Below, in pieces: positions 4,832-32,000 of a DNA stretch of 32,000 bases. Origin of the DNA: Vulcanisaeta distributa DSM 14429 (GTDB lineage: Archaea > Thermoproteota > Thermoprotei > Thermoproteales > Thermocladiaceae); contig NC_014537.1 of the NCBI RefSeq assembly GCF_000148385.1, forward strand, positions 1,770,001 to 1,802,000. The letters run 5' to 3'. A program made the translations under genes and the position numbers. The notes below the pieces were generated by a model. That model was not told the DNA's origin. It saw nothing but the letters and a program-made list of their open reading frames with translations, and made no database searches. Numbering within the stretch: the stretch's first letter is position 1; each line of letters begins with the position of its first letter.

Positions 4832-5528
4832 TCAGTGATTTCTTCCTTAATAACCACCAATCCCTCCCATTACTTATTGCCTCTTCAAGCGGATCCTTAA
4901 CGCCCAACTCATTAAATGCCCTCCTCCTGGCAAGGCACCCGCTACATTGGCCGCATGGTACATCGTAATTATTATGGCAGGACCACGTGTACTCAAAGGG
5001 CACGCCCAATTTAAGGCCTAGTCTAACGACATCGGTCTTACTTAACCCTGAGAGCGGCGCTATGACCCTGAGCCCCCTGGCCCTGCCTATGTAGGTACCT
5101 ATTGTTAATGCCCTTGAGATAAACCTCCTGAATTCCCTCGACGTATCCGGGAAGTACTTCGTATCGTCGGCGTTATGGCCGGCCACTATCGTATCTATCC
5201 CAAATACCTCTGCGTAGTACGCGGCGACGGCGTATATTATGGCGTTCCTCGCGGGTATCGTACTTGGGTGAGCGTTCCTTAGGTGGCTCGGTCTTTCATC
5301 ATCATTATTCCATAGTTCATCAACCTCCCTCATAAATGGCAGGTCAACCTCAATCAATTTCGTATTTGTTAACCTGGCGAGTTCCCTCGCCGACTCCCTC
5401 TCACGTTCTCCCCTGCCCGGGTAATTTATTGATAGGGCAATCACGTCATAGCCCCGAGACTTAAGTAGGTATAGAGCAACGGCTGAATCAATACCTCCCG
5501 ACAGCAGTAGTATGGCTTTTTTCTTCAT
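4821..5528 (-). CDS. queC: 7-cyano-7-deazaguanine synthase (archaeosine/preQ0 pathway)
   Basis: N-terminal PP-loop KAILLLSGGIDS. C-terminal zinc motif CHNNYDVPCGQCSGCLARRRAF, typical of QueC. Confidence 0.85.
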   Translation of the reverse strand: MKKKAILLLSGGIDSAVALYLLKSRGYDVIALSINYPGRGERERESARELARLTNTKLIEVDLPFMREVDELWNNDDERPSHLRNAHPSTIPARNAIIYAVAAYYAEVFGIDTIVAGHNADDTKYFPDTSREFRRFISRALTIGTYIGRARGLRVIAPLSGLSKTDVVRLGLKLGVPFEYTWSCHNNYDVPCGQCSGCLARRRAFNELGVKDPLEEAISNGRDWWLLRKKSLIKP

Positions 5529-16418: not shown

Positions 16419-16525
16419 TGGTGCGGGGGGTGGGATTTGAACCCACGCAGGCCTTCGCCAACGGGACCTCATTGCGGGGATTGTTATCCTACCCGCCCCC
16501 TTTGACCTGGCTCGGGCACCCCCGC
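16419..16525 (-). tRNA. tRNA-Leu(GAG) with a 19-nt non-canonical intron and an encoded CCA
   Basis: Hand-folded cloverleaf:
- acceptor stem GCGGGGG/CCCCCGC with discriminator A73 and CCA
- D arm CCCG-AGCCAGGUCAA
- anticodon stem GCGGG/CCCGU
- 14-nt variable arm containing a GGC-GAAG-GCC hairpin
- T arm GUGGG-UUCAAAU-CCCAC
Removing 19 nt gives the loop UUGAGGU. Confidence 0.85.
16472..16490 (-). other. tRNA-Leu intron (19 nt) on the 5' side of the anticodon loop
   Basis: The intron sense sequence is AGGATAACAATCCCCGCAA, lying between nt 32 and 33. An equivalent register between nt 31 and 32 is also possible. It can form GGAT-AACA-ATCC and GCGG/CCGC helices with a 3-nt bulge at the 5' splice site. 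Confidence 0.65.
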
Positions 16526-16585
16526 AAGATCATTATCTTGCGGTTTGGTTTTAAGTGTTTTTCTGTGGTTTTGTTATGGTGTCTT

Positions 16586-17521
16586 GTGCTATGGGGAGAA
16601 AGTGTTATTAATGTTGTTTTCGATAACGGCTTCGTGTCTGCGGTTCTTTATGACCATGTCACTAAGAGGTTTGGGCGTATTGTGGCTGTTGAGGATGTTT
16701 ACCTTGAGGTTCCTGAGGGTAGGATAGTGGCGCTCGTGGGTCCTAACGGTGCTGGTAAGACGACGATGCTCAGGCTTGCGGCTGGTATACTAGCTCCCGA
16801 TGGTGGTAGGGTCCTTGTTTATGGCTATGATGCAATGAGCGTTAAGGCTAAGAGGAGGGTTGGGTTCATGACGCCCATGGACCGCGGTGTTTACTGGAGG
16901 TTAACGGCAATGGATAACCTAATCTTCTTCGGTGTATTGTACGGCTTATCGCTGGGGGAGGCTAGGGCGAGGGCTAAGGAGTTACTTGAGGACCTGGGAC
17001 TTGGTGGGAGGGCTAATGATTGGGTTGCTACGTATAGTACAGGCATGATGAGGAGGCTCGAGATAGCCAGGGCGTTGATGCACGACCCAGATGTACTACT
17101 GCTTGACGAGCCAACAAGCGGCATAGACATTGATGCGAAGCGCAGCATACTTAACTTCATTAGGGGTCTTAGGGGTAGGAAGACCGTGATCCTCGCATCC
17201 CACGATCCTCAGGAGATTGAGTTGGCGGATGCAGTTGTGTATATAAATAGGAGGATTTTGAATGAGTCGCCTGCCCTTAAGGTGGTTAAGGTCCTCGTTA
17301 AGGGTTCCGTGGATGGGCTTAGCGGATTTAATGTGGAGGGCGTTGGTGATGATGAGTACGTAATAGTAACAACAATTGATAAGTTTAATGAGTTAATGAG
17401 TATGTTAGCCATGTATGATGGTAGGGTCAGGGTTGTGGATATAGATGTTGAGGTTGCGGTGGCCGAGGGCAATGCACGGAAGATGGAGAGGGTTTTGAGG
17501 AGGAGGGAGGGGTGGTTGTGA
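16586..17521 (+). CDS. ABC transporter ATP-binding protein (ABC-2 exporter type)
   Basis: Walker A GPNGAGKTT, signature YSTGMMRRL, Walker B LLLDEPTSGID. The 5' part of the tracked ORF (16421-16585) overlaps the tRNA gene and is not coding. The GTG at 16586 is my best guess for the start. Confidence 0.8.
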   Translation: MLWGESVINVVFDNGFVSAVLYDHVTKRFGRIVAVEDVYLEVPEGRIVALVGPNGAGKTTMLRLAAGILAPDGGRVLVYGYDAMSVKAKRRVGFMTPMDRGVYWRLTAMDNLIFFGVLYGLSLGEARARAKELLEDLGLGGRANDWVATYSTGMMRRLEIARALMHDPDVLLLDEPTSGIDIDAKRSILNFIRGLRGRKTVILASHDPQEIELADAVVYINRRILNESPALKVVKVLVKGSVDGLSGFNVEGVGDDEYVIVTTIDKFNELMSMLAMYDGRVRVVDIDVEVAVAEGNARKMERVLRRREGWL

Positions 17522-18336: not shown

Positions 18337-19071
18337 TTAGGTGGGCCTATGCTTACTCACTGCCTCCTTGACGGATTCGTAGACCGCCCTCCCGATTAAT
18401 TCTCCGATTTTAGAATGGCCGCCGGTGTATGTTATGCGTATGCCATTGCCTGGAACTACCATTACGTTATCCGTGCCTGTCCCCGTGGCTATTAGGCCGG
18501 GCGTGTAACTACTTGTGATTCCAAGGTCCTGGAGCGCCGCGCACTTTGCTTCCGTTATTGTTATTAAAGCCCTGGCCATGGCGGCTTCCGTCAACGAGGC
18601 GTTAGTTATTAATATGATATTTATCGTGCCTACTCTCTCGAACCTACCATCAACCTCGTACATAGATGCCTTATCCACACCAGTCCTCAACGCATTTGAC
18701 TCGACACCGGCAGTGGTGAATGCCGCCACCCACACGTCCCTATATTCATCGCTTGCCATCGCCAGGTCATCCATGTCCACCCCAGTGCCTAGGCATGCGT
18801 AATCGCCCGGGGCTATCCTCAACTGACTCATTAGTGAATCTAGGTATTTCTCACGAAAGCCCTGACTATGTAGTGCGCACCATAAGTCCGGTGGTGCGTA
18901 GTTATTGCATACGAAGCGTACATTAACCATGCCATGCATCGTACTGAGCACATGCCTTCTCTGTGCTAGGTCAATGAGGAGTGTCTTAACGTTGATGCTG
19001 CCATAGCTTTGATAGTATATTCGAGCCGTCATACCATCGCGAGACCAGACCTCCCTAAACGCGACGCTCAT
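18337..19071 (-). CDS. cbiZ: Adenosylcobinamide amidohydrolase (corrinoid salvage)
   Basis: The length and the block ITITEAKCAALQDLGI...ATGTGTDNVMVV fit the CbiZ family. Confidence 0.75.
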   Translation of the reverse strand: MSVAFREVWSRDGMTARIYYQSYGSINVKTLLIDLAQRRHVLSTMHGMVNVRFVCNNYAPPDLWCALHSQGFREKYLDSLMSQLRIAPGDYACLGTGVDMDDLAMASDEYRDVWVAAFTTAGVESNALRTGVDKASMYEVDGRFERVGTINIILITNASLTEAAMARALITITEAKCAALQDLGITSSYTPGLIATGTGTDNVMVVPGNGIRITYTGGHSKIGELIGRAVYESVKEAVSKHRPT

Positions 19072-19078
19072 TACGTAG

Positions 19079-19102
19079 TAGGATGAGCATCCTATTAATA
19101 AG
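19079..19102 (-). promoter_or_regulatory. cbiZ promoter: TATA element plus the 16-bp palindrome TAGGATGCTCATCCTA (putative operator)
   Basis: The sense strand reads CTTATTAA-TAGGATGCTCATCCTA-CTACGTA-ATG. The palindrome is at 19079-19094, 7 nt from the start codon. Confidence 0.6.
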
Positions 19103-19121
19103 CACTGCGCCCATAAAAGTC

Positions 19122-20048
19122 CTAAATAAGATAGAGGATTCCTAGGATTAGCAATGCCAAGAGCGCCCTAGTTAGTGTGGATATGAGCATTATGGTGATG
19201 CCATCCTTAGGCCCATAAATACCGAGGTAATAAGGCGCATTATGCCTGATCCCACGTATTAATGATGAGGCCACGTAACCAATCAACAACCACTTTACGA
19301 TTAAAATGCCGTTGAACCCCTCATTAATGAGTGTACCTGCGGCTGCGAAGGCCGCGTTATCGTTAATGACGTAAGCCATTATTAAACTCACCGCGTATGG
19401 ACTTAGGGTGCTGAAAGCACGTGTTAAATAATTATTGAGGTAGTTGTTAAGTCCGAGGAGCTCGATGGTGATGAGTGCCGCGCTCGTTATTGACGTAATC
19501 AGTACTATCCTCGTGATGAATTTAAGGGCCATCCTCAGATTAAGCGAATTACTCACAACCTGCCCAATAGGCTCGGTAATGCTGCCCTGGACCCTATCCT
19601 TATTTGAGCCCCATCTTCCGAGGGCCGCAAATATCATCATCTGCATTAAACCAATAGTCATGAGGATTAGGAGATAGAGGAGGCCATAGATGCCCATTGT
19701 GCCTAGCAGTACTGGGATGAGGGTCCTTAAGTGCGAGAGCAGGGCTGGGAATGCATTAATAAGAGATGCTATGTATAGCTCCCTACGTGTTAATTTACTG
19801 TCTTTATACATGGTTACGAGCATTGAGGACGCGGTGGATGGACTAACAAAGGAGACCATAAACGGTAAGGAGCAATAACTGGGCAGTCCAGACAGTGCGG
19901 TGATCCACCGCCCCAACCTGCTTATGGGCCTCATTATAGCTCTCCTACTCATTATGTAGTACATGGCAAGCACTCCTAATGCTATGCTGGGTATCGTGAG
20001 CGACAGGTAGTGAAGTTCGTAAATGATTACATTCATTGCCTGCTCCAC
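19122..20048 (-). CDS. Polytopic membrane protein of unknown function, last gene of the importer/chelatase operon
   Basis: 308 aa with about 8-9 hydrophobic spans. A GTG start overlaps the cobN stop (TAGTG); an alternative ATG is at 20036. I could not assign a family. Confidence 0.6.
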   Translation of the reverse strand: MEQAMNVIIYELHYLSLTIPSIALGVLAMYYIMSRRAIMRPISRLGRWITALSGLPSYCSLPFMVSFVSPSTASSMLVTMYKDSKLTRRELYIASLINAFPALLSHLRTLIPVLLGTMGIYGLLYLLILMTIGLMQMMIFAALGRWGSNKDRVQGSITEPIGQVVSNSLNLRMALKFITRIVLITSITSAALITIELLGLNNYLNNYLTRAFSTLSPYAVSLIMAYVINDNAAFAAAGTLINEGFNGILIVKWLLIGYVASSLIRGIRHNAPYYLGIYGPKDGITIMLISTLTRALLALLILGILYLI

Positions 20049-23000
20049 TAACCAACACCCTCCAACACACCCTCCAATTCAGCGTATATATCCCTTAATT
20101 TACGTATGACGTCCTCCGACGTATGCCACAACCCCCTTTCATACGCCTCATACAGTCTCTTGATGATTTGCTCTAATGCGTATGGATTAACCTCAATAAA
20201 CCACCTCCTCATCTCATCACTAAACACGTACGTCTCCGCAACCCTATCCCAAACCCAATCATCCACCGCATTCATAGTCGCGGCCAGGCCGAGGACATAC
20301 TCAACACGCTTCGAAATGTTCTGGGCGCCCATGTAGCCGTGCCTCCTCATACCCTCAATCCACTTTGGATTGAGTAACCTGGTCCTCACGTAGAACCCAA
20401 CGGCATCTCTAACGTTCATCATCCTAGGTCTGTCCTGGGTTAGGTCCGTGTAGAGAACTAAGGGCCTCTTACCTGAGTATACCTCGACGGACTTTGATAG
20501 GCCGCCTAGGTATGCGTAGTAGTCGTCTATGTCGATTATTGAGTAATCAACGCTGGACTGAACCTGACTAGTGACATCCACCCTACTCAGTAATGCCTTA
20601 AATAGGTCCTTGAGCTCGTTCGAGTTCATACCGCGCATGTCACCGTCATAACCAAAGCCCATGTACATGGTATAAACACTGGCGATGTCTGTATCCGCCC
20701 TCCACCTCGACGTCTCTACTAGGTGATTAACCTTATTCCCGTAGTCACCAGGCCTCTCGCTGAACGTCCTTACTAACGAGGCCTCACCATACCTATTCCT
20801 TAACTCAAGGTAGTGCTTACGGACGTAATTCACATCCACCGGCTCATCTAACCCCGCGACTAGTCTAACTGCCTTATTAATGAGCGAGATTAAGTGCGGG
20901 AACATGTCCCTGAACACGCCGCTCATTGTCACAACAACGTCTATCCTGGGCCTACCGAGGTCCTTAATAGGTATTACCTCCAACCTGGGGTCCCAACTAC
21001 CTGGCCTATGAATAAGCTTAACACCGAGGTAACGCAATGCCTGCCCAATACTGACCCCTCTAGTCCTCGACTCCTGGCCTCCCCAAACAACAATGCCGAC
21101 AGCCTCAGGATACCTACCATACTGCTCCAGGTACCTCTTAATACTCTCCTCGGCAATCCTCGCACCCAACTCAAGCGCCGATTCGCTGGGTATCTTAAGT
21201 GGGTCGAGCGCGTAGAAGTTCCTCCCGGCGGGTAGGACGTCGGAGTCCATCACGTAATCACCACCGACACCGGCCGGTATATACTCCCCATTCAACGCCC
21301 TAATTACGTTCTTAAGCTCAAGCTTAGGCGATAGCCTTAACCTCTCTACCACATCACGCGCGTAATTCAGCACGGCCTTGGCATCATCGCCCTTAATACC
21401 ATATTCCTCCGCCACCTTAATTGCTGAATCAACGCCACCCACAATCAATGCTCTGACAATCCTCCTAACCCCCTTGTCTATTGACCTTAGGATATTCGCA
21501 TACTTACCTGGATGCTCGAGTAAGTCATCATAGTCGTACCCCATTGCCTCGGCCAGGAGCCTATGTAGTGACTTAACAACGCCCCTATCACGCCTTAACG
21601 CCAGCGTTAGGTAATCAACGACCTCATCATCGCTCAACTCCACGCCGAGGACCCTCAACCCGTACGGCATTGCCGAGCGCTCCATCCTCATAAGCTCATC
21701 ATAAAGGGCTTCGAGGTCTTTCACCTCCAACCCATACTTACCCGCAATGCTCTCTATGGACTTGAGCACCGCGCTTGCCCTGGGCTTGTCGATAACGTTC
21801 GCCTCTCTGTACTCATCGATCAAGTCACGCAGCCTCTTTAGCTCATTGTTGAGGCCCGCCTCGGTTATCCTGGGCGAGAGGTGGCTAATTAGTACGGCGT
21901 ATGACCTCCTCTTGGCGATCGTGCCCTCGCCAACGACGACCACGTGGTAGATGTACACGTTTGGTAAATTCCCAAGAAGTGCGTCTGGAGGGCAGCTGGA
22001 AGACAGACCGACCTGCTTACCTGGGAGGAACTCGAGCGTGCCGTGAGTCCCAACATGGATAACGGCATCCGCATGCCAAACCTCCTCAAGCCACCTGTAC
22101 AGTGCGACGTATTGGTGATGTGGGTATAGTTCTGAGTCATGGTAAATCCTGCTGGGATCCTCATGCCAGCCCCTGCTTGGTTGCAATACAATCACTACAT
22201 TACCTAAGTCAAGCACTGGCAGTGCAAGGCCTCCATTCCTAGTCATAACATTGCCAGGGGGCTCACCCCACTGCTTAATGATCCTCTCCCTAAGCTCCGG
22301 CCTTAATTTACTGAATAGGTTCATGTACGTAGCCCTATCGACCAGTACATAATTGGCGCCGGCCGACCACCTGCCTGAGTTTGGGTTTCTCACGAAGAAC
22401 TCCTTAATGGTATCGGCAGTGACGGGCTTAACTCTAAATCCCTCCTCCGACAACCTCCTCAGTAATACTTCAACTGACTTAAGCGTGTCGAGGTATGAAG
22501 CCCTACCTATGTTCTCCTCGCCAGGTGGGTAATTATATATTATGATAGCGATCCTCTTATCGGCATTGGGCTTTTGCCTAAGGGTTAACCACCTATCAGC
22601 CCTGCTGAGCACCCTATCAACCCTGTCCTGGATTACCTCCATAGCCTTAACACCGTTTCTATTGACAAGGCCCGCTATTGGGATGGGCTCTATGGCGCCG
22701 TCGACCTCAGGCATGGCCACGGCGTATATGACCTCGATTGGGCTGAGCCCCGTTGGGTCCCTAACCCATGCGTCAGCGTCCCTACCATACATGACCACGG
22801 GGCTCATAACGGGGACGTTGAACTTAGGCAATACGTCGGAATCCTCACGGTTTCTAACCAACCTAAACCACTGTAAGTTGAGTATAGCCCCAACGCTCGC
22901 ACTGCTAAGCAACTCCCTTAGGCCCCTCAGTGTGTAGCCGTAATTGGAGAGGAGCGGGACTACATCGGCCCTACCCCTCATTATGTGGGTAATCACCTTC

Positions 23001-23710
23001 CTGGCCTTATCGTACGATTGCCCCGAGTAGGCTAACAATACTATGAACGGCGCCTTTAACCTCCTACGCATCATGAGTTCATTAATTCCGTGATATACGT
23101 TGCCCTCATCATCCTCAATCCAGTAATCCCCCAACTCGATGGGCGGCCTCGGCGCTGGCGCCTCAATACCGCAGTATTCCCTGAGTACTAGCCGTACCAT
23201 ATTAATTATATTCTCCCTACGCCAATTTCTCCAGTAATCAATCAGTAATGCCCAATTCTTAAGGTGGCGTGATACAGGGTTAGGAAGGGATTTAGACATT
23301 TCATGAAGCACGTGGGAAACGGTTTTCGGGTCGAAGTAATTAATAGACTGGGTGGGGCCATTACGTGGAGATAACGAGGCGATTAGGTAATCCCCCATTT
23401 TATAATTGTGAATTCTTGTAAGCATTACGGTTTCTAGGCCAGTGCTTAATGTAATGACGACAGGCGCCTCGCGCAACCAGTTCCCTAGGTAATTCAACAG
23501 CTCTGGGTGATCACCCATTAGGCTTAGCAGCGCTATGTCTGGCCTTGCCACGGCGGATAACTGCCTCGAAACCTCATGTATGTCGTAACTCTCCAGGTAA
23601 ATTGTGTTAAATTCCACATCATCGATTCCGCTTAATGCTTCGTTTAATGCCTCATAAAATCCCTCAGTCATTAAAGACCTGGTAATCAACAGTATACGGC
23701 ATTTTGGCAT
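20048..23710 (-). CDS. cobN: Cobaltochelatase large subunit CobN (CobN/BchH family)
   Basis: 1220 aa. Contains the conserved block ADAVIHVGTHGTLEFLPGKQVGLS and a family-typical length. Confidence 0.9.
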   Translation of the reverse strand: MPKCRILLITRSLMTEGFYEALNEALSGIDDVEFNTIYLESYDIHEVSRQLSAVARPDIALLSLMGDHPELLNYLGNWLREAPVVITLSTGLETVMLTRIHNYKMGDYLIASLSPRNGPTQSINYFDPKTVSHVLHEMSKSLPNPVSRHLKNWALLIDYWRNWRRENIINMVRLVLREYCGIEAPAPRPPIELGDYWIEDDEGNVYHGINELMMRRRLKAPFIVLLAYSGQSYDKARKVITHIMRGRADVVPLLSNYGYTLRGLRELLSSASVGAILNLQWFRLVRNREDSDVLPKFNVPVMSPVVMYGRDADAWVRDPTGLSPIEVIYAVAMPEVDGAIEPIPIAGLVNRNGVKAMEVIQDRVDRVLSRADRWLTLRQKPNADKRIAIIIYNYPPGEENIGRASYLDTLKSVEVLLRRLSEEGFRVKPVTADTIKEFFVRNPNSGRWSAGANYVLVDRATYMNLFSKLRPELRERIIKQWGEPPGNVMTRNGGLALPVLDLGNVVIVLQPSRGWHEDPSRIYHDSELYPHHQYVALYRWLEEVWHADAVIHVGTHGTLEFLPGKQVGLSSSCPPDALLGNLPNVYIYHVVVVGEGTIAKRRSYAVLISHLSPRITEAGLNNELKRLRDLIDEYREANVIDKPRASAVLKSIESIAGKYGLEVKDLEALYDELMRMERSAMPYGLRVLGVELSDDEVVDYLTLALRRDRGVVKSLHRLLAEAMGYDYDDLLEHPGKYANILRSIDKGVRRIVRALIVGGVDSAIKVAEEYGIKGDDAKAVLNYARDVVERLRLSPKLELKNVIRALNGEYIPAGVGGDYVMDSDVLPAGRNFYALDPLKIPSESALELGARIAEESIKRYLEQYGRYPEAVGIVVWGGQESRTRGVSIGQALRYLGVKLIHRPGSWDPRLEVIPIKDLGRPRIDVVVTMSGVFRDMFPHLISLINKAVRLVAGLDEPVDVNYVRKHYLELRNRYGEASLVRTFSERPGDYGNKVNHLVETSRWRADTDIASVYTMYMGFGYDGDMRGMNSNELKDLFKALLSRVDVTSQVQSSVDYSIIDIDDYYAYLGGLSKSVEVYSGKRPLVLYTDLTQDRPRMMNVRDAVGFYVRTRLLNPKWIEGMRRHGYMGAQNISKRVEYVLGLAATMNAVDDWVWDRVAETYVFSDEMRRWFIEVNPYALEQIIKRLYEAYERGLWHTSEDVIRKLRDIYAELEGVLEGVG

Positions 23711-23712
23711 GG

Positions 23713-25656
23713 TTAGTCACCAACCCTGACAGTATCCACCGCGTACTTACTGAGTACGTCAATGTACGTTATCGATGGGTCATAAATCAACTGCGGCCTT
23801 GTATCGTAAATAACCACCTTAGCCAACCTACTTAACTCGACCATGAAGCTCTCGAGCTCCTCCCTGACATCCTTCATTAAAGGTACGTTGGCCTTACCGT
23901 CAGTTATGACGTAGACCCAGTAATCACCCCTCAACTTAAGGCCCAACCTCTTAATTAGGTCAACGGCGCAGGCGAGTGCCGCAGATAACGGCGTCGCGCC
24001 ACCGCTTGGTAACCCCTCTAGAGTACTTAATACCTGCCAGTAATTCCTCGTTGGTTCGATAATCACGTCCACGCCACGGCCTCTGAAACTTATGAGACCT
24101 ACGTAACTCCTCTTCACGTAAGACTCCTCGGCTATTCTCCTCACCAGTCCCTTTGCTACCTCAATCCTTCTCATGAAGTTCATACTACCGCTGGCGTCAA
24201 GGACTATCAGCGAGATCCTCGGGGCCCTAACCCTCCTAACCCTAACCATTAGGTCTCCCCAATCAACCTTAATCGGCAACCCCGCACCCCTAAGCGCTGC
24301 GTGCACGATCGATGCCGTTAAATCAACATCAGCCGAGCCCTCCTTATTACTAATTGGTAGGTACATGTATGGAATACCGTGGGGCTGACCAACAATCCTC
24401 CTGAAGGAGGACCTTGACCCCAGCCCATGGCTTCCAGCGTGTATGAACTCCTTCCTAAACTCCACTGGAATACCCACGCTAGCTACCCCATACCTCCTGG
24501 AATTACCGTCCACACCGCCTACATTACCTCCAGTACCTGCATTGCTATGTTCATCTTGTGCCGTGCTCATGCCATCCCTCAACATGCCACCTCGCTGGTT
24601 AGGTGTTTGCCCTGGTTGTTCATTCCGTGTGTTATTATCGTTAATCAATGGTTGAGGGAGTATCGGTGGTTTAGGCCTCTCGAATGGCCGGGCCTTGAGC
24701 CTATGTGGTAGTGCAAGTTCCATGGCCCTCTGTAAATCCTCCATGGTGACCCTAGTCCTCCCCTCCAACGCCGCTAATGCTTTAGCGGTCCTTGTCGTGA
24801 CTATCTCGGCGCGACTCGTCCTTATGTCCAGTTTAATTATAGTCTCAACTAGGGTCTTGAGTAGGTCATCAGGCATCTCAACCCTTTTCACCAATTCCCT
24901 GGCCTTCCTAATCTCTTCCCTAATCTTCTTAATCTCAGGTTCCCACCTTCTGTAAAAGCCCTCGGGGTCCCTATTGAATTCCTCAACCCTCCTAACAATC
25001 TCAGCCCTCACCTCCGGGTCCCTGGGAGCCTCTACATCTACGATGAGGCCAAACCTATCGAGAAGTTGAGGCCTGAGTTCACCTTCCTCGGGATTCATGG
25101 AGGCCACTAGTATGAACCTGGCCGGGTGTTTGACGGACACGCCCTCCCTCTCCACCACGTTCCAGCCGTAGGCGGCTGCGTCCAGGAGTATGTCGATTAT
25201 GTAATCATCGAGTAGGTTAACCTCATCAATGTATAGGATGTTCCTGTTAGCCTCAGCTAAAAGGCCAGGTTGGAGTGCCCTCACGCCCTCCGTTATTGCC
25301 CTCTTGATGTCCAGCGTGCCGACAAGCCTATCGACGGTTATTGAGAGGGGTAGGTCAATAACCCTCATCTTTTTAATCGCCACCGGCAACCTCTCACCCC
25401 TCTGGTACCTGGCATAGCATGAGTCACACATCAGTTGCGGATCGCGTGGGTCGCAATTGAATGGGCAGTCGGCCACCACCTCAACCTCAGGCAGCACATC
25501 CGCAAAGGACCTAACTAGCGTGGTCTTCCCAGTACCCTTATCACCCCTAAGCAGGACACCGCCAATTAATGGGTTAACAGCGACGGCGAGAAGGGCCGAC
25601 TTAGCCTTATCCAACCCCACGATGGCGGGGAACGGAAAGGTAACACGACGGCTCAT
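23713..25656 (-). CDS. Fused ChlI-ChlD type chelatase ATPase (AAA+ module, linker, VWA module)
   Basis: The N-terminus FPFPAIVGLDKAKSALL...LLRGDKGTGKTT is a ChlI/BchI-type AAA+ module. It carries the Cys insert CPFNCDPRDPQLMCDSCY. A Pro/Gln/Gly/Asn-rich linker follows. The C-terminal VWA domain has the MIDAS motif LDASGSM. Confidence 0.85.
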   Translation of the reverse strand: MSRRVTFPFPAIVGLDKAKSALLAVAVNPLIGGVLLRGDKGTGKTTLVRSFADVLPEVEVVADCPFNCDPRDPQLMCDSCYARYQRGERLPVAIKKMRVIDLPLSITVDRLVGTLDIKRAITEGVRALQPGLLAEANRNILYIDEVNLLDDYIIDILLDAAAYGWNVVEREGVSVKHPARFILVASMNPEEGELRPQLLDRFGLIVDVEAPRDPEVRAEIVRRVEEFNRDPEGFYRRWEPEIKKIREEIRKARELVKRVEMPDDLLKTLVETIIKLDIRTSRAEIVTTRTAKALAALEGRTRVTMEDLQRAMELALPHRLKARPFERPKPPILPQPLINDNNTRNEQPGQTPNQRGGMLRDGMSTAQDEHSNAGTGGNVGGVDGNSRRYGVASVGIPVEFRKEFIHAGSHGLGSRSSFRRIVGQPHGIPYMYLPISNKEGSADVDLTASIVHAALRGAGLPIKVDWGDLMVRVRRVRAPRISLIVLDASGSMNFMRRIEVAKGLVRRIAEESYVKRSYVGLISFRGRGVDVIIEPTRNYWQVLSTLEGLPSGGATPLSAALACAVDLIKRLGLKLRGDYWVYVITDGKANVPLMKDVREELESFMVELSRLAKVVIYDTRPQLIYDPSITYIDVLSKYAVDTVRVGD

Positions 25657-26417
25657 ACGATCACCACCGGTCTACCGTTATGTTCAATCACCGTGGTTTT
25701 GACCCCGTACACCTCCTCAATAATGCTTGGGCTGACATCGCCTGGACTTAATTCAGCGATTACCCTACCATTGTGCATCACGTAAATCCTATCCGCATAC
25801 TTAAGGGCTAGGTTTATGTCATGCATTGCAGTTAATACTGCAATTCCATCCTCACGCGCTATCCTCGATAATACTTCCATTACCATAACCTGGTGCTTGA
25901 GGTCTAGGTTACTCGTCGGTTCATCAAGAAGCATTAAAACACCTCCCTGCGCGATGGCCCTAGCTATGTGAACGAGTTGGGCTTCGCCACCACTAAGCCT
26001 ATTAATCATCTTATTAGCCAAGTATTCAATGCCAAGCCTTCTCATGGCATTAATGGCTACATCAACATCGAACTTGCTTGGTCTAAGCCCCATGTACGGC
26101 AGTCTACCCAGCAGGACAGCGTGGAATGCCTCGATTGGGTACGTGACTACGTAATTCTGCGGTACGTAGGAAACGAGCCTAGCAATTTCACGTCTACTCA
26201 TCCTCAATGCATCCCTACCGTTGATCCTAATGAAGCCCTTGAAGACCTTAGCCATGCCCAGAATACACCTAATTAATGTGGACTTACCGGCACCGTTGGG
26301 CCCCATTAATGCCACCAATTCTCCATCTTTAGCGTTAATGCTTACGTCCCTGATTATCGGTCTCTCGTAGCCGCACGTAAGATTCCTTACTTCAAGCACG
26401 TCATTACTCATAACCAT
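25653..26417 (-). CDS. ABC importer ATP-binding protein (FepC/BtuD type)
   Basis: Walker A GPNGAGKST, signature LSGGEAQ, Walker B LLDEPTSNLD. It overlaps both neighbouring genes. Confidence 0.85.
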   Translation of the reverse strand: MVMSNDVLEVRNLTCGYERPIIRDVSINAKDGELVALMGPNGAGKSTLIRCILGMAKVFKGFIRINGRDALRMSRREIARLVSYVPQNYVVTYPIEAFHAVLLGRLPYMGLRPSKFDVDVAINAMRRLGIEYLANKMINRLSGGEAQLVHIARAIAQGGVLMLLDEPTSNLDLKHQVMVMEVLSRIAREDGIAVLTAMHDINLALKYADRIYVMHNGRVIAELSPGDVSPSIIEEVYGVKTTVIEHNGRPVVIV

Positions 26418-27456
26418 ATTGGGTCCCCCTTGATATGACGATGGCCAGTAAGTATGGTGCGCCGATCATTGAAAGTACAACGCCTATGGGTATCACGTAT
26501 GGCGGCACTAGGGCCTTTGAGACCACGTCGGCTAGTACAGCAACGTCAGCACCCATGAGTGCCGAGGCTGGCACTAGGTACCTATTGTCATTACCAATGA
26601 GTATCCTCATTATGTTTGGTATCACTAAGTCGATAAAGCCCACCAAACCAACGAAGCTTATCACAGCCGCTGCCTGGAATGCCGTCACGAGCATTACGGC
26701 CAGTCTCGTATTCCTGACATTAACACCGAGGCTATGGGCGACATCATCGCCTAAATTAAGCGCGTTTAGTCTCCATGAAATGAGTACGTAGTATGGTATT
26801 GCAAGTAGTGACAGGGACATGTAGGGTATGTAGTTGAGGGTTACGTTAGTTACGCTACCCAGCATCCACATGACGATGGCGTGACTTACATCTGGATTGC
26901 CAGAGAAGTACTGGATTAACGAAGTACCTGTGCTAAACACGAACATCACGGCTACGCCGGCCAGTATTATCGTGACCGGCGACGCACCCTTAATGAAGGA
27001 TAGGAAGTAGACGAGTAGTGCTGCTATTGATGCCGCTATAAATGCGCCAATAATTACTAGGTACGGCTCCGTTATCACGGGTAAGTAATACCTAACGACG
27101 TAGCCGGCGCCGAGGAGTATGGCCACGGCAGCCCCAAAGCCCGCGGCTGCGGAGACGCCGAGTGTGTAGGTCGACGCCAGCGGATTCCTAAGAATACCCT
27201 GCAGCATGGCGCCTGCGGATGCGAGTGACGCGCCAAGTAGTAGCGATGCTAAAGTCTCGGGAAGCCTTATTTGCCATATCACTAAGTACGTATCGTGGGG
27301 AACACCGAATACGGGGTCAATACCATCAATAATTGCCTTCAAGGCAACAATGGGATTAACTCTATAGGCCCCGATCACCACATCAAGAATTATTAACGGA
27401 AATAATGCTAAGCCGCTGGCCATTATTAACCCCCACCTCATCCACTGCACCACCAA
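26404..27456 (-). CDS. FecCD/BtuC family ABC importer permease
   Basis: 350 aa with about 9-10 hydrophobic spans. The pattern is typical of the FecCD family (LGDDVAHSLGVNV...). Confidence 0.85.
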   Translation of the reverse strand: MVVQWMRWGLIMASGLALFPLIILDVVIGAYRVNPIVALKAIIDGIDPVFGVPHDTYLVIWQIRLPETLASLLLGASLASAGAMLQGILRNPLASTYTLGVSAAAGFGAAVAILLGAGYVVRYYLPVITEPYLVIIGAFIAASIAALLVYFLSFIKGASPVTIILAGVAVMFVFSTGTSLIQYFSGNPDVSHAIVMWMLGSVTNVTLNYIPYMSLSLLAIPYYVLISWRLNALNLGDDVAHSLGVNVRNTRLAVMLVTAFQAAAVISFVGLVGFIDLVIPNIMRILIGNDNRYLVPASALMGADVAVLADVVSKALVPPYVIPIGVVLSMIGAPYLLAIVISRGTQYGYE

Positions 27457-28556
27457 GTACCACCTGGTTCGGCAGTCCTTAGGAATTCCTCGAAGTATTG
27501 GTTAAGGTATTGAGTGGCGTTAACGCCAGCGAAGGCGCTAGGGTATACCTGGCTAGCTATGTATAACGAGACTATTAACTGCGGCGGCCCCTCGGTTAGG
27601 TAGCCGGGTATCACGATGACCCTGCCGTACTTAACGGCATTAGTCGCATTGAGTATTGGGTTGCTCCTTATTGAGTTAATTATTGATTCGCAGTAGGCCG
27701 TGGTGTTCAGTGAATGCGGGTTTAAACTCCACGTCACTGCGATTATGACGTCTGGGTTACATTGGAGCACGGCACTAGGCTCAACCTGCATTGACTTATT
27801 GAAGCATGGCTGTAGGCCGGCATTGACGGCCGCCCAATACGGGTCTCCAGAGGGGCCTGATGTGAACCATAAGCTGTATTCGTAATCGAAGATTACGTAG
27901 GCCTTATACCTGGTGGGAACTTTACTCAAGCCCCTCTGCAATACCTGGTGCACATTGTTAATGAAGTCGATTAGTTTCACGGCATTGCCAGTGTGGTTGG
28001 TGATTAGCCCGAGGAGGTATATGAATGATGATAGGTTATCCTGAGGTCCATAACCAATCACTGGAATGCCAAATGGGCTTAGCTTACCTCTTACTGTTTG
28101 GACACCGTAGCTCCACTCTATGACTAGGTTGGGCTTTAGGTTAATTATCTCCTCGTAATTCCATGACCACATTCCTTGACTCACGGCCGGTAGTGTCGTT
28201 AAGTTCCCAAAGAGCCAGGGAAGCTCCTTAGCGTAGCCCTCAATACCCACCACCGTGTTTCCAGCCCCTATATCGATTAGTATCTGCATGGCGACGGTGT
28301 TGTCGGCCACGATTCTCTTGACGGGTATTTTCATGGTTACGTTAGACCCATAATTCTCAACAGTAATGGAGGTACCATTGTAACTAACGATTTCGAAATT
28401 GGGCGATGAGTAATAGACGTAAGAGGCGACTCGGGTTACAGACTTATGCGCACTCCACTCATACAGTGTTATTGTCGCTATAAGGGCTATTGCCACCACT
28501 ATTATTGTGAGTAATGCTGCAGTTACCTTACCCATCCTCGACATGACGCCCGACAT
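27438..28556 (-). CDS. Membrane-anchored class III substrate-binding protein (BtuF/FhuD-like)
   Basis: An N-terminal hydrophobic anchor, then a periplasmic-binding-protein pattern (VVGIEGY...LKPNLVIEW...PDVIIA). I prefer the ATG at 28556 over the GTG at 28559, because it reproduces the operator-to-ATG spacing seen at cbiZ. Confidence 0.75.
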   Translation of the reverse strand: MSGVMSRMGKVTAALLTIIVVAIALIATITLYEWSAHKSVTRVASYVYYSSPNFEIVSYNGTSITVENYGSNVTMKIPVKRIVADNTVAMQILIDIGAGNTVVGIEGYAKELPWLFGNLTTLPAVSQGMWSWNYEEIINLKPNLVIEWSYGVQTVRGKLSPFGIPVIGYGPQDNLSSFIYLLGLITNHTGNAVKLIDFINNVHQVLQRGLSKVPTRYKAYVIFDYEYSLWFTSGPSGDPYWAAVNAGLQPCFNKSMQVEPSAVLQCNPDVIIAVTWSLNPHSLNTTAYCESIINSIRSNPILNATNAVKYGRVIVIPGYLTEGPPQLIVSLYIASQVYPSAFAGVNATQYLNQYFEEFLRTAEPGGTWWCSG

Positions 28557-28563
28557 CACGTAG

Positions 28564-28587
28564 TAGGATAAGCATCCTATTTAAAAG
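28564..28587 (-). promoter_or_regulatory. Importer/chelatase operon promoter: TATA element plus the 16-bp palindrome TAGGATGCTTATCCTA (putative operator)
   Basis: The sense strand reads CTTTTAAA-TAGGATGCTTATCCTA-CTACGTG-ATG. The palindrome is at 28564-28579, 7 nt from the ATG at 28556. Confidence 0.6.
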
Positions 28588-29114
28588 CCCTTCCATTCGC
28601 AGAATTTTTATCAATTATATCACCGTAAATTTACTCCTTAATTTACAGCAGTCATTTCGAGCGACTAATCCATGATTGCAACCTCAGCATGTAAAGTGTT
28701 TGTGGGCTTATTGAACTGTTAATGCTAGAAAATGACTTGCGTTGTTCATTGTGTAATTAATAATTAGGTTTGGTCCTTAATCATTACTGAGCTTTATAAC
28801 TACCATACGGCTGTTAGGCCTGTTTTTCAATGCTCTGGTTTCTGGGTTAATTATGATACGTCGATTAGTAGGTCGTTAATTATCTCTGTGACTACGTAAC
28901 CCTCCCCACCATATAGGCTTAATTTAGCATACAATAAGCTAAACTTAATGATTCCCCCAAGTGATCTTGTGCTTATTAGTACATCACCTCATTAAGCTTG
29001 CATCCGCAAGGCTCTGAACCAACTCCATTTATCTCGGCTTTAGCTAATGCCATGTTCACGTTTTTACTTATTACAATGACATGTATTGAGCTTTTCATGC
29101 CTTAGTCCACCGTT

Positions 29115-29915
29115 TTACTCGGTGTCTACGCTGTTAATCTTAGGCTTTGGTCTAAAGCTGTGGGTGTGCCTTGGGTCGTAGACGCTCGATCTTACCGGCG
29201 TGTCCAGGATGGACGGGTCTGCGGCCTTACCCACTATTATCACGGAGTCCTTGGTTATCCTAGCCCTCTTGACCTTCTCGGCGATGTCGGACAGTGTTCC
29301 CCTAATTATCACTTGGTCGGGCCACGTCGCCTTGTAAACCACCGCGACTGGCGTATCATCGGGCACGCCGGCCTCCCTCAACTCCTTAACCACCTTATCG
29401 ATTAGGTGAACACCGGTGTATATGGCCATCGTCGCGCCTATGAGCATTGCCTTGGCGAAGTCCTTTATTGAGCCCTGCATCGGCACCCTAGCCGAGGCCC
29501 TGGTTATGATTAGGGTCTGGGCAACCTTGGGTAGGGTTAACTCAATGCCCAGCACGGCGGCCGCGGCCAACGCCGCGGTGACCCCAGGCACCACCTCATA
29601 CGGTATGCCGGCCTCCCTAAGCGCGATGATCTCCTCAAGTAGCGCGCCGTATATACTCGCATCACCCGACTTAAGCCTAACCACCAGCTTACCCTCCCTG
29701 GCCCTGGTAATCATTATGTCCACGATCTCCTCAAGCGTCATTGAAGCACTATTATGAATCTCCGCGCCTGGCCTAGCCCACCTAAGCACCTCCGGATTTA
29801 CCAGGGAGCCCGCGTAAATAACTACGTCGGCCTGCTGCAGGTACTTCATACCCTTCACGGTAATGAGTTCCGGATCACCAGGCCCGGCCCCAACGAAGAC
29901 CACCTTCCCAACCAT
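29115..29915 (-). CDS. cbiF: Cobalt-precorrin-4 / precorrin-4 C11-methyltransferase
   Basis: VVFVGAGPGDPELITVKG...ADVVIYAGSLV is the CbiF/CobM signature. Confidence 0.85.
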   Translation of the reverse strand: MVGKVVFVGAGPGDPELITVKGMKYLQQADVVIYAGSLVNPEVLRWARPGAEIHNSASMTLEEIVDIMITRAREGKLVVRLKSGDASIYGALLEEIIALREAGIPYEVVPGVTAALAAAAVLGIELTLPKVAQTLIITRASARVPMQGSIKDFAKAMLIGATMAIYTGVHLIDKVVKELREAGVPDDTPVAVVYKATWPDQVIIRGTLSDIAEKVKRARITKDSVIIVGKAADPSILDTPVRSSVYDPRHTHSFRPKPKINSVDTE

Positions 29916-29920
29916 CGATG

Positions 29921-29945
29921 TAGGATCATTATCCTACTTATAAAT
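29921..29945 (-). promoter_or_regulatory. cbiF internal promoter: TATA element plus the 16-bp palindrome TAGGATAATGATCCTA (putative operator)
   Basis: The sense strand reads ATTTATAAG-TAGGATAATGATCCTA-CATCG-ATG. The palindrome (29921-29936) overlaps the cbiL stop codon. Confidence 0.55.
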
Positions 29946-30644
29946 CCTTCTAGCTATGACTAGTGAGAAGTAGTCCCTAGGCAACTCACCACTTGGTTCA
30001 TTAATTATTAACTCACCATCCATATAGCACCGCCTGGCGTAGGTCACGGAATACCCATAATTCCTAAGTAGCGAGGCGACCCTGCCCATGTCCGCGTTCC
30101 CCTTGAGTATTATTATCGTGTCGGCAAAGCCCATAGCCCTCATTAAGCCCTCGATGTCGTCACCCACGAGTATGACTATCGACTCATCACCAACCGCTAA
30201 ATTAACACCGGCCCTGGCAGCGCACGCCATTATTGAGGAGACCCCAGGCACAATTATGGGTTCGTAATCGCAGTCAATGAATGGCTTAATCCTATAGAAG
30301 GTACTGTATAGAGATGGGTCACCAAGTACCACAAATGCCGCACTACCATACCTACGTAACCCATCGCATATGGCCCTGGCATTCCCCATTAATACCTCCT
30401 TACTTGGTTCCTTAATCATGGGAAAACCGAGGAACACCACCTGGGTGTCTGGGTCAATGTACTTACTGACTATGGTGTACGCCAAACTCCTATTGCTGCT
30501 GGTGGAGTAGGGTATGAACACAAGCTTAACTTTACGAAGTACCTCGGCACCCATGACCGTGATTAATCCTGGATCGCCAGGCCCCAACCCAATGACGTAT
30601 AGCTTAGGCACTTCATTACTAAGCTCTTTGCCCACTCTGATCAC
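29934..30644 (-). CDS. cbiL: Cobalt-factor II / precorrin-2 C20-methyltransferase
   Basis: LYVIGLGPGDPGLITVMG..., the FPM motif (FLGFPMIKE) and GDPSLYSTF are typical of CbiL/CobI. Confidence 0.8.
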   Translation of the reverse strand: MIRVGKELSNEVPKLYVIGLGPGDPGLITVMGAEVLRKVKLVFIPYSTSSNRSLAYTIVSKYIDPDTQVVFLGFPMIKEPSKEVLMGNARAICDGLRRYGSAAFVVLGDPSLYSTFYRIKPFIDCDYEPIIVPGVSSIMACAARAGVNLAVGDESIVILVGDDIEGLMRAMGFADTIIILKGNADMGRVASLLRNYGYSVTYARRCYMDGELIINEPSGELPRDYFSLVIARRIYK

Positions 30645-31330
30645 CGCTGCTTAATGGCATCCTTAATGCTTACCACCGAGGATACCCGCCCACACATATT
30701 CTTCTCGCCAGCTATTATGAATATTGGGTTTCTCGAGAGCATTACGGTGCCAACGCCAGTCCTCAGGCCCTTGGCTATAACGACTTCTGTGACCTCCACG
30801 TTCACGAAGCCTAACTCGGCCATGGTCGCCAGGGCCAGCGATGCGTTCTCCAGGGTTATTGCATCAATTACTAGGCGGCCGCCCACGCTTAATTTACCAC
30901 GCACGCCCACGATTATGTCCCTCAACTTACCACCACTACCACCTACGAACGCGGCATCCACCTCACCAGGCACTTGATTTAATGCCTCAGGTGCCTCACC
31001 ATGTATGACAATGACCCTATCACTCACACCAAACCTAATGGCGTTCCTCCGCGTGAGTTCCACGGCATTTTCATCACTATCAATGGCGTAAACGAGGCCT
31101 CTCCTCGCCATTAAGGCAGCCTCCACAGTCACTGAACCTGTTCCCGAACCTATGTCCAGCACCCTCGAGTCCTCCCTCAGCCTAAGCTTCGAAATCACTA
31201 ACGCCCTAACCTCCTCCTTAGTCATTGGGATTCCCTCGACACGTTCAAATAATTCGTCAGGTATTCCAGGGGTTACGTACCGCCAGAGGGGATTACTCAT
31301 GGTCGCCAACCCTCGCGAGTACCTCACCAT
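30641..31330 (-). CDS. cbiT: Cobalt-precorrin-6B C15-methyltransferase (decarboxylating)
   Basis: PMTKEEVRALVISKL...VLDIGSGTGSVTVEAA is the CbiT pattern. An alternative start ATG is at 31300 (MSNPLW). Confidence 0.8.
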   Translation of the reverse strand: MVRYSRGLATMSNPLWRYVTPGIPDELFERVEGIPMTKEEVRALVISKLRLREDSRVLDIGSGTGSVTVEAALMARRGLVYAIDSDENAVELTRRNAIRFGVSDRVIVIHGEAPEALNQVPGEVDAAFVGGSGGKLRDIIVGVRGKLSVGGRLVIDAITLENASLALATMAELGFVNVEVTEVVIAKGLRTGVGTVMLSRNPIFIIAGEKNMCGRVSSVVSIKDAIKQR

Positions 31331-32000
31331 TATCGCTAAATATCACAATCTCGAGGGAAGCATTGCCCAGCTTCCTTAACCTGGTAAGTGCCCTCTCGGC
31401 TATTATCCCCATAACCTTACCCGCGGCATTGCCTAGGTAATGCAAGGCCTCGCCGACCGTTTTAGAGGAGGCTATCCTACGTAGGGTCTCACCATTAATC
31501 CCAGCCATTACTGCGGCCCAGGTGATTGTCTCGATTCTCGCATCACCAACTGAGCTGTGCGTGTTTAGTAAACCGGCCGCGAGCTTAACGGCCTTCCCTG
31601 GCAACAACGCCACGACTACCTTACGGAAGCCCAGCCCAATGGCCTCCCTAACCGAGGCGCCTACTAAATCGCCGACCTTGACCACAGATAGGTCGTAAAT
31701 GGCCTTGGCGAAGTTAACAGCCCTATTGCCTGAGGCGATCACCACACCATCACCATCCCTCCTCAAAGCCATTAATTGAGCCTTTATGTGTTGGATGAAG
31801 GATTCATCACTTACGGGCCACTCGATACCCATCGTCCCGAGTATGGATATGCCACCGATTATACCGACATCCTCATTCATCGTGAACCTAGCCAACTCCT
31901 CACCGTTGGGCACCTCAATGATTACCTCAACACCCGAGCTTACGACTTCCCTAACCGCATTCTCAATCATGAGCTTAGCCGTGGGGCTAATGGCCGACTC
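31293..32000 (-). CDS. cbiD: Cobalt-precorrin-5B C1-methyltransferase, 3' part; the gene continues beyond the right edge
   Basis: The frame stays open to base 32000. The block VGIIGGISILGTMGI matches the CbiD GGxSILGTTGI motif. Confidence 0.75.
   Translation of the reverse strand, partial: ESAISPTAKLMIENAVREVVSSGVEVIIEVPNGEELARFTMNEDVGIIGGISILGTMGIEWPVSDESFIQHIKAQLMALRRDGDGVVIASGNRAVNFAKAIYDLSVVKVGDLVGASVREAIGLGFRKVVVALLPGKAVKLAAGLLNTHSSVGDARIETITWAAVMAGINGETLRRIASSKTVGEALHYLGNAAGKVMGIIAERALTRLRKLGNASLEIVIFSDNGEVLARVGDHE

Follow-up and report, generated by a model that had tools for sequence, protein, structure and literature searches.

A palindrome flush with the TATA element marks cobalamin promoters of Vulcanisaeta and is probably the operator of a B12 regulon

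The stretch of DNA analyzed here comprises 32,000 nt of the hyperthermophilic archaeon Vulcanisaeta distributa DSM 14429 (NC_014537.1, positions 1,770,001 to 1,802,000; referred to as the window and numbered from its first base). It contains genes of cobalamin (vitamin B12) metabolism on the minus strand, and three of their transcription units, cbiZ, an importer/chelatase operon and cbiF, carry the same 16-bp palindrome, TAGGAT-N4-ATCCTA (TAGGATNNNNATCCTA), in the promoter (Table 1). The B12-related identities of the genes at the three sites, assigned without database searches in an earlier note on this DNA, were confirmed by Pfam. The importer operon encodes, in this order, a Peripla_BP_2 binding protein (27438-28559), a FecCD permease, an ABC ATPase, a ChlI/D-like subunit, CobN and a 308-aa membrane protein. 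The cbi operon upstream of cbiF has, in relatives, a promoter and palindrome(s) of its own past the position of the window's end, ahead of cbiX-cbiC. The units marked by the palindrome join de novo corrin synthesis, cobalt chelation, corrinoid import and cobinamide salvage.

Table 1. Genes, TATA elements and putative operator palindromes of the B12 locus of V. distributa (window coordinates; palindromes written in the sense direction; L numbers denote compared loci)
Feature	Position	Strand	Remarks
cbiZ, adenosylcobinamide amidohydrolase	18337..19071	-	Pfam PF01955, E = 8.8e-57; 100% identity to V. distributa CbiZ
cbiZ putative operator, TAGGAT-GCTC-ATCCTA	19079..19094		exact match; 12 arm bases invariant and four spacer variants among five Vulcanisaeta genomes
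cbiZ TATA element, CTTATTAA	19095..19102	-	abuts palindrome; centre 27.5 nt before A of ATG (19071)
Importer/chelatase operon	19122..28559	-	Pfam; genes overlap or abut
Importer/chelatase putative operator, TAGGAT-GCTT-ATCCTA	28564..28579		exact match; conserved in L003, L005, L006
Importer operon TATA element, CTTTTAAA	28580..28587	-	abuts palindrome; centre 27.5 nt before ATG (24.5 nt before GTG)
cbiF-like precorrin-4 C11-methyltransferase	29115..29915	-	Pfam PF00590 (TP_methylase); identical protein named precorrin-4 C(11)-methyltransferase by NCBI
cbiF putative operator, TAGGAT-AATG-ATCCTA	29921..29936		exact match; conserved in L003, L005, L006, spacer there TTAC
cbiF TATA element, TTTATAAG	29937..29944	-	inside 3′ end of upstream coding sequence; centre 25.5 nt before ATG
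3′ part of upstream cbi operon: methylase (29934-30644), CbiT-like, CbiD	29934..32000	-	runs off window

A pattern search of the window for TAGGATNNNNATCCTA returned exactly three perfect matches, and all three copies that the earlier note had placed between TATA element and start codon of B12 units were recovered. The expected number was 0.01 (mean of 100 dinucleotide-preserving shuffles), none of the 100 shuffles reached three copies, and the chance estimate of approximately 0.002 offered earlier was of the same order of magnitude. Zero exact palindromes were found in the non-B12 part of the window (18 kb). Allowing up to two mismatches added only three sites, one at 16476 and two inside cobN. 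The former lies within a minus-strand tRNA-Leu(GAG) gene with a 19-nt intron and was rejected as an operator; the latter two, located in coding sequence, were no operator candidates either.

Re-reading of the sequence showed the previously quoted minus-strand contexts to be correct, with CTTATTAA-palindrome-ctacgta-ATG at cbiZ, CTTTTAAA-palindrome-ctac-GTG-ATG at the importer operon and TTTATAAG-palindrome-catcg-ATG at cbiF. Each palindrome abuts the TATA element and is followed by the start codon 4–7 nt further downstream; for the open reading frame (ORF) of the binding protein, the alternative starts are a GTG 4 nt or an ATG 7 nt past the palindrome. The cbiZ site lies 27 nt past the stop codon of the 308-aa membrane protein gene. 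The cbiF promoter is an internal one with its TATA element in the 3′ end of the upstream methylase gene (29934-30644), and the TAG stop codon of that gene constitutes the first three bases of the cbiF palindrome. A 26-nt block said to be common to the cbiZ and importer promoters was present in both.

Scanning the binding protein against one genome per species yielded four further Vulcanisaeta loci (75–85% protein identity), and the palindrome was present at the orthologous promoters of all four, the conservation that the earlier note had proposed to look for. In comparisons of 3–5 Vulcanisaeta genomes per promoter, the 12 arm bases showed a mean pairwise identity of 100% at all three promoters, versus 38% (cbiZ), 88% (importer) and 33% (cbiF) for the spacer. 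The respective values were 100%, 100% and 92% for the TATA element and 46%, 63% and 85% for the 27 nt upstream of it. In strain JCM 14467, in which the locus is rearranged, a palindrome is located directly upstream of cobN, and the cbiF promoter contains a copy with one mismatch. Additional palindromes were found in the relatives beyond the position of the window's end, ahead of cbiG-cbiH and cbiX-cbiC. As judged from these alignments, the arms of the palindrome are under purifying selection, and invariant arms around a free spacer are the signature expected for recognition of a dyad by a dimeric DNA-binding protein.

The pattern used to scan a metagenome collection joined the TATA consensus directly to the palindrome (TTWTWARTAGGATNNNNATCCTA) and returned 94 stretches. 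Approximately 60 site instances were located on archaeal hot-spring contigs with an ORF beginning a few nt downstream. A further ~45 instances, mostly on AT-rich contigs, from other environments, without an ORF or representing the reverse reading of symmetric sites, were taken as chance. The source names of identical or clustered proteins were Vulcanisaeta spp., Thermocladium sp. and one 'Thermoprotei archaeon'. The majority of the archaeal sites stood ahead of B12 genes. Counted as contig instances, many of them from near-identical contigs, the targets were Peripla_BP_2 binding proteins of ABC importers (12), CbiZ (5), a CbiX-CbiC fusion (4), CobN behind a 20-codon upstream ORF (6), CbiF (1), DUF4430 proteins beside ECF transporter components (3) and ECF-S-like membrane proteins (3). 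Two recurrent targets were new: an MFS transporter with a PfkB kinase encoded after it (13) and a 183-aa tetratricopeptide repeat (TPR) protein encoded divergently from a CobD-like aminotransferase (13).

A redundant set of related DNA (441 kb), each piece of which was chosen for holding at least one site, contained 75 exact palindromes; all of them abutted a TATA-like element and none occurred elsewhere. Three cbiF promoters containing TATTTAAA, which falls outside the scan pattern, are among these 75 and were found free of the bias of the scan. Used as a proxy for enrichment upstream of cob, cbi and btu genes, the data show that cbiG, cbiX-cbiC, cobN and the metagenomic B12 genes are marked, and neither in the 441 kb nor in the window was the palindrome frequent without a bias toward B12 genes. 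A palindromic signal recurs upstream of archaeal genes for B12 synthesis and transport, and in the DNA compared it appears confined to one functional gene set.

An alignment of 51 non-redundant oriented sites revealed a uniform promoter anatomy. With the end of the TATA element set to 0, a purine-rich GTAATG resembling the recognition element (BRE) of transcription factor B (TFB) is found at -13 to -8, the TATA consensus YTTWTWAR at -7 to 0 and the palindrome immediately after it at 1–16, with arms identical at 51 of 51 sites. Further downstream, C20 and G21 are conserved and the ATG is mostly located at 24–26; across the regulated promoters, the distance from palindrome to start codon is 4–8 nt. 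Archaeal TATA boxes are centred ~26–27 nt upstream of the transcription start. As the TATA centre lies ~25–28 nt upstream of the A of the start codon, the mRNAs of these genes are most likely leaderless, the palindrome most likely lies outside the transcript of its own promoter, and the operator would span about -23 to -8. The measured geometry fits the location between TATA element and predicted leaderless start that the earlier note had suggested.

We consider it probable that a dimeric transcription factor, a corrinoid-responsive repressor, uses the palindrome as its operator and controls the B12 regulon of Vulcanisaeta and related Thermoprotei. The comparative evidence argues for the proposed protein-operator regulon of corrinoid synthesis, salvage and uptake. 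A dimeric sequence-specific factor would occupy the 16-bp operator directly past the TATA element, leave the latter open to the TATA-binding protein (TBP) and perhaps TFB, and repress transcription by blocking either the recruitment of RNA polymerase or promoter opening. Repression is proposed because the operator covers the region that is bound by TFB and RNA polymerase and melted at initiation. The co-repressor in such an end-product feedback would most likely be a corrinoid, either adenosylcobalamin or one of its precursors, because synthesis, chelation, import and salvage together represent the gene set of the bacterial B12 riboswitches.

The main rival assumes the same operator and a regulator that senses cobalt or another metal, e.g., of the DtxR/MDR1, NikR or ArsR type, to which we assign a minor share of the probability. 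Among the regulated genes are those for the cobalt chelatase CobN/ChlID and for CbiX, the first enzyme of cobalt insertion, the importer is of the FecCD/Peripla_BP_2 class, which carries iron chelates as well, and related boxes or palindromes occupy the same slot before cbiMNQO (Bathyarchaeia), cbtB (Pyrobaculum) and NicO (T. tenax). The TAGG...CCTA core loosely resembles DtxR-type boxes, but its spacing of 8 bp does not fit the DtxR consensus; DtxR/MDR1-type operators follow a ~19-bp TWAGGTWAGSCTWACCTWA-type consensus, to which the palindrome is only loosely similar. The targets further include CbiZ as well as DUF4430/ECF-type and BtuFCD-like uptake systems, and the Vulcanisaeta regulon contains no cobalt transporter. 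Corrinoid feedback is preferred over metal feedback because the target set makes sense for corrinoids only.

An activator or dual regulator that binds at the palindrome and recruits the basal machinery to otherwise weak B12 promoters is formally possible, since conservation reveals a site and not the sign of regulation; we regard it as unlikely. Archaeal activators bind upstream of the BRE, as generally known for the characterized Ptr2 and TFB-RF1 (upstream of BRE/TATA), whereas the palindrome is always located downstream of a good TATA and a BRE-like element, over the region contacted by RNA polymerase and melted. Even less probable is a copied promoter cassette without a specific regulator, spread by duplication or serving as core element for an alternative TBP/TFB. 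The 26-nt block and the constant fusion of the element to the TATA box would agree with such a cassette, but across genes and lineages only TATA and the 12 arm bases persist while spacer and flanks diverge, palindromy is unexpected in a directional core-promoter element, and the element is limited to one functional gene set.

The least credible explanation is a nucleic acid structure acting without a dedicated protein, either an RNA hairpin (riboregulator, processing or termination) or a DNA cruciform: a 6-bp stem with a 4-nt loop could form, the cbiF and cbiZ sites lie within or just past upstream genes and may be reached by read-through transcription, and joint conservation of both arms would also be expected for a stem, but a stem of -4.4 to -4.6 kcal/mol (37 °C) would melt in a hyperthermophile, the arms do not covary but are the same at all 51 sites, no oligo-T tract is present downstream, there is no matching Rfam family, and an RNA role leaves the strict abutment to TATA unexplained. 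Rfam reported no family at gathering score anywhere in the window. In particular, no covariance match to the cobalamin riboswitch (RF00174) was found in a transcribed leader, and only 4–7 nt separate palindrome and start codon. A riboswitch or other known RNA was rejected on account of the missing Rfam match and the small hairpin energy, in line with the earlier suggestion that a protein operator stands in place of a riboswitch.

Several points weigh against a corrinoid-responsive repressor acting at this operator. No gene for the transcription factor was found in the window, in the four 21-kb Vulcanisaeta loci or in the DNA beside the metagenomic sites, as judged by Pfam and NCBIfam searches of window ORFs of at least 80 aa outside the B12 genes and of uncharacterized ORFs beside metagenomic sites; for the window, this bears out the lack of an obvious regulator gene stated previously. 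The only helix-turn-helix protein met in this search was an MBF1-like housekeeping factor, with TFE in the same locus. The placement of the site between TATA and transcription start is read from geometry. The scan pattern itself contained the TATA element, so that only promoter-abutting copies were detectable, many of the scanned contigs stem from the same few populations, and genome-scale specificity was judged on metagenome contigs and loci rather than on complete genomes. One importer operon runs on into methylmalonyl-CoA mutase, its B12-binding subunit and MeaB; end-product repression of this B12-dependent enzyme would be odd if the genes are co-transcribed. The simple layout is also broken at cbiX-cbiC in the Vulcanisaeta relatives, where the ATG falls within the palindrome spacer.

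In the same cbiX-cbiC promoters, the perfect palindrome with the ATG in its spacer comes 10 nt after a TATA element with a degenerate palindrome (TAGGATGTATGTCC; L003 4395-4447, L005 4375-4427, L006 4295-4346). Ahead of an ECF-S-like gene (L072 2129-2173; L099), two perfect palindromes are located 29 bp apart. Both arrangements suggest tandem operators. In one Vulcanisaeta population, the operator-like palindrome sits at the promoter of a conserved 20-codon leader ORF (MHIEVFRDFDVEREFKVVA) whose stop codon overlaps the ATG of cobN (L022 10547-10633, L023, L041, L076, L085 11656-11760, L096 1251-1350). A CAGGAT-N4-ATCCTG variant at L028 3550-3565 has TATA-like elements on both sides; the 780 bp around it, flanked by a PurK-like fragment and an ATPase gene, contain no called gene. 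The MFS transporter (413–424 aa) and PfkB kinase pair was found in L013 (2690-3964 and 3969-4901, respectively), L025, L047, L048 and L061, and also in L008 and L083; speculatively, transporter and kinase might together salvage a building block of B12. The TPR target was found in the Thermocladium loci L018, L027, L052, L069 and L080; in L069 the palindrome is at 4822-4837, the TPR gene at 4845-5396 and the CobD-like class I/II aminotransferase at 3774-4760.

The 308-aa multi-pass membrane protein encoded by the last gene of the importer operon (19122-20048, minus strand) gave no Pfam or NCBIfam match. A distant homologue (25% identity, E = 3e-8) is encoded on the Vulcanisaeta contig L085, which derives from a metagenome-assembled genome (MAG), at 4231-5190, divergently from cbiZ and with a palindrome in between, and the protein is a candidate B12- or cobalt-related transporter. 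For a 201-aa operon member considered as PduO adenosyltransferase, Pfam gave no support. Between cbiF and the importer promoter lies a gap of 535 bp (28580-29115), and the region aligned with it in L003, L005 and L006 reads as a small ORF which, judged by eye, resembles a retropepsin-type aspartic protease. The V. distributa sequence contains deletions and no long ORF there and is therefore probably a decayed gene. The tRNA-Leu(GAG) gene mentioned above (16419-16525) was missed by Rfam and by default ARAGORN, which gave no match in the window, and was found with the ARAGORN intron option; because it covers position 16421, the true start of the ORF at 16421-17521 (ABC ATPase) must lie downstream of it.

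With up to two mismatches allowed, the N4 motif was not found at the cbi-locus promoters of S. islandicus, T. tenax, Pyrobaculum (two MAGs), Thermoproteaceae (one high-GC MAG) and Bathyarchaeia; it is also lacking at those of two other Sulfolobales-like lineages. A related box with a 5-nt spacer, TGGAY-N5-RTCCA, was identified at B12 or cobalt promoters of several Sulfolobales and Bathyarchaeia. It is located at the cbiX-cbiC start in S. islandicus (TGGATAGACAATCCA) and in a low-GC Sulfolobales contig (TGGATAGTTTATCCA), between TATA and ATG of cbiX-cbiC in another MAG (TGGACGGCTTATCCA), and in Bathyarchaeia between hemA and cbiA (TGGATGGGCCATCCA) and, as box or near-copies, in the cbiM/regulator intergenic region. 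In Pyrobaculum, TGGGAAACTTATCCA with two left-arm mismatches to this box lies past the TATA element of cbtB. The coordinates of these boxes are L101 5938-5952, L110 5965-5979, L111 1879-1893, L118 5939-5953, L107 4539-4553 and 15327-15341, L112 5934-5948 and L105 ~5325-5340. The window contains TGGAY-N5-RTCCA only with one mismatch, and all copies lie inside coding regions. The N4 form was seen in Vulcanisaeta, in Thermocladium and in one further lineage of Thermoprotei, and the N5 form in Sulfolobales and Bathyarchaeia. Both forms have GGAT/ATCC cores; in the Vulcanisaeta operator these are 1 bp closer, flanked by TA on either side, and flush to the TATA element.

The NicO promoter of T. tenax (L103 ~1270-1310) has a different TATA-abutting 16-bp palindrome, AGGGATATTTTTCCCT (AGGGAT-ATTT-TTCCCT), and in the Pyrobaculum cbiB promoter (L105 18286-18301) the TATA-abutting slot is occupied by TAGTAC-TAAA-GTCCTA. 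These elements suggest that the promoter architecture is common and that the recognition sequence drifts.

In Bathyarchaeia, a protein of 279–287 aa with a MarR-like winged helix-turn-helix (wHTH) and a DUF7839 domain (PF25211) is encoded divergently from cbiMNQO, and the intergenic region between the two contains a GGAY-N5-RTCC box. In two lineages (66% identical), genes for such proteins (P0241 and P0257) are located within cbi, chelatase and BtuFCD-like clusters (L107 15393-16256; L112-L117 6001-6840, in L116 2379-3218). The family comprises 405 clusters at 50% identity, including members from Methanopyrus, Methanococcus, Thermoplasmata and Nitrososphaerota; its two C-terminal domains gave no match in the PDB. 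A profile built from 120 members had no match in the six-frame translated window or in loci L001-L111 other than those of Bathyarchaeia. The wHTH-DUF7839 protein is a candidate regulator of archaeal B12 or cobalt genes for the N5 box, as a lead and not as an assignment. Rather tentatively, a hitherto unrecognized family of corrinoid-sensing transcription factors may replace the B12 riboswitch in Thermoprotei and other archaea, with a GGAT/ATCC operator family in N4 and N5 forms, wHTH-DUF7839 proteins perhaps as its first members, and roles in B12 metabolism for the 308-aa, MFS plus PfkB and TPR proteins.

To our knowledge, archaea have no B12 riboswitches, and their B12 sensing and regulation are essentially uncharacterized. 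The regulon resembles those of the bacterial cobalamin riboswitch RF00174 in comprising cbi/cob genes, cobalt chelation, btuFCD-like import, cobinamide salvage and DUF4430/ECF components under presumed end-product feedback, but it would be governed by an untranscribed DNA element instead of a ~200-nt leader RNA. Repressors acting downstream of or overlapping the TATA element are established in archaea with MDR1 of Archaeoglobus, LrpA and Phr of Pyrococcus, and TrmB/TrmBL1. The likeness to these lies in a dyad operator past or over TATA, an expected block of RNA polymerase recruitment, and control by a small molecule or metal. The Vulcanisaeta operator differs from them in a sequence unlike those known for them, in zero spacing to TATA at every site and in the predicted leaderless genes.

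That a protein operator may control archaeal B12 genes has been proposed before. Rodionov, Vitreschak, Mironov and Gelfand reportedly predicted in 2003 (in J Biol Chem) a 'CBL-box' for a hypothetical B12 regulator of some archaea. The CBL-box and the Vulcanisaeta operator are alike as palindromes recurring at B12 synthesis and transport genes of archaea that lack B12 riboswitches. The N5 box of Sulfolobales is plausibly what the 2003 analysis saw; we know of no Vulcanisaeta, Thermocladium or Caldivirga genome available at that time. Our literature search revealed no description of the N4 motif, its regulator or any archaeal B12 regulator, and no identification of the regulator predicted in 2003. 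For the motif this agrees with the earlier note, which was aware of no description, and the Vulcanisaeta operator would represent a lineage-specific variant of a predicted, experimentally uncharacterized element.

A precedent for a transcription factor that replaces a bacterial riboswitch is the archaeal riboflavin regulon of RbkR (Rodionova et al. 2017, PMC5397151), which was likewise found by comparative genomics and has short promoter-near palindromes with lineage-specific motif variants. RbkR differs in being encoded by an enzyme-fused wHTH gene and, in Thermoproteales, in its motif AAACT-N2-AGTTT (PMC5397151), whereas neither an enzyme-regulator fusion nor a linked transcription factor gene is visible at the Vulcanisaeta loci. 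The wHTH-DUF7839 clusters of Bathyarchaeia do link a regulator gene to the B12 locus, but neither the window nor the Vulcanisaeta-type loci examined contain a homologue.

The operator is crisp, with 12 invariant bases, a fixed position and at least five copies per genome. It may serve as bait for DNA-affinity purification of the regulator and as the basis of a reporter for B12 status in hyperthermophiles, and it offers a clean model promoter on which to study how a TATA-flush archaeal repressor would block initiation on leaderless genes. Membership in the regulon hints at functions of the 308-aa membrane protein, the MFS transporter with its PfkB kinase and the TPR protein. Above all, it makes the long-standing question of the archaeal B12 regulator directly testable.

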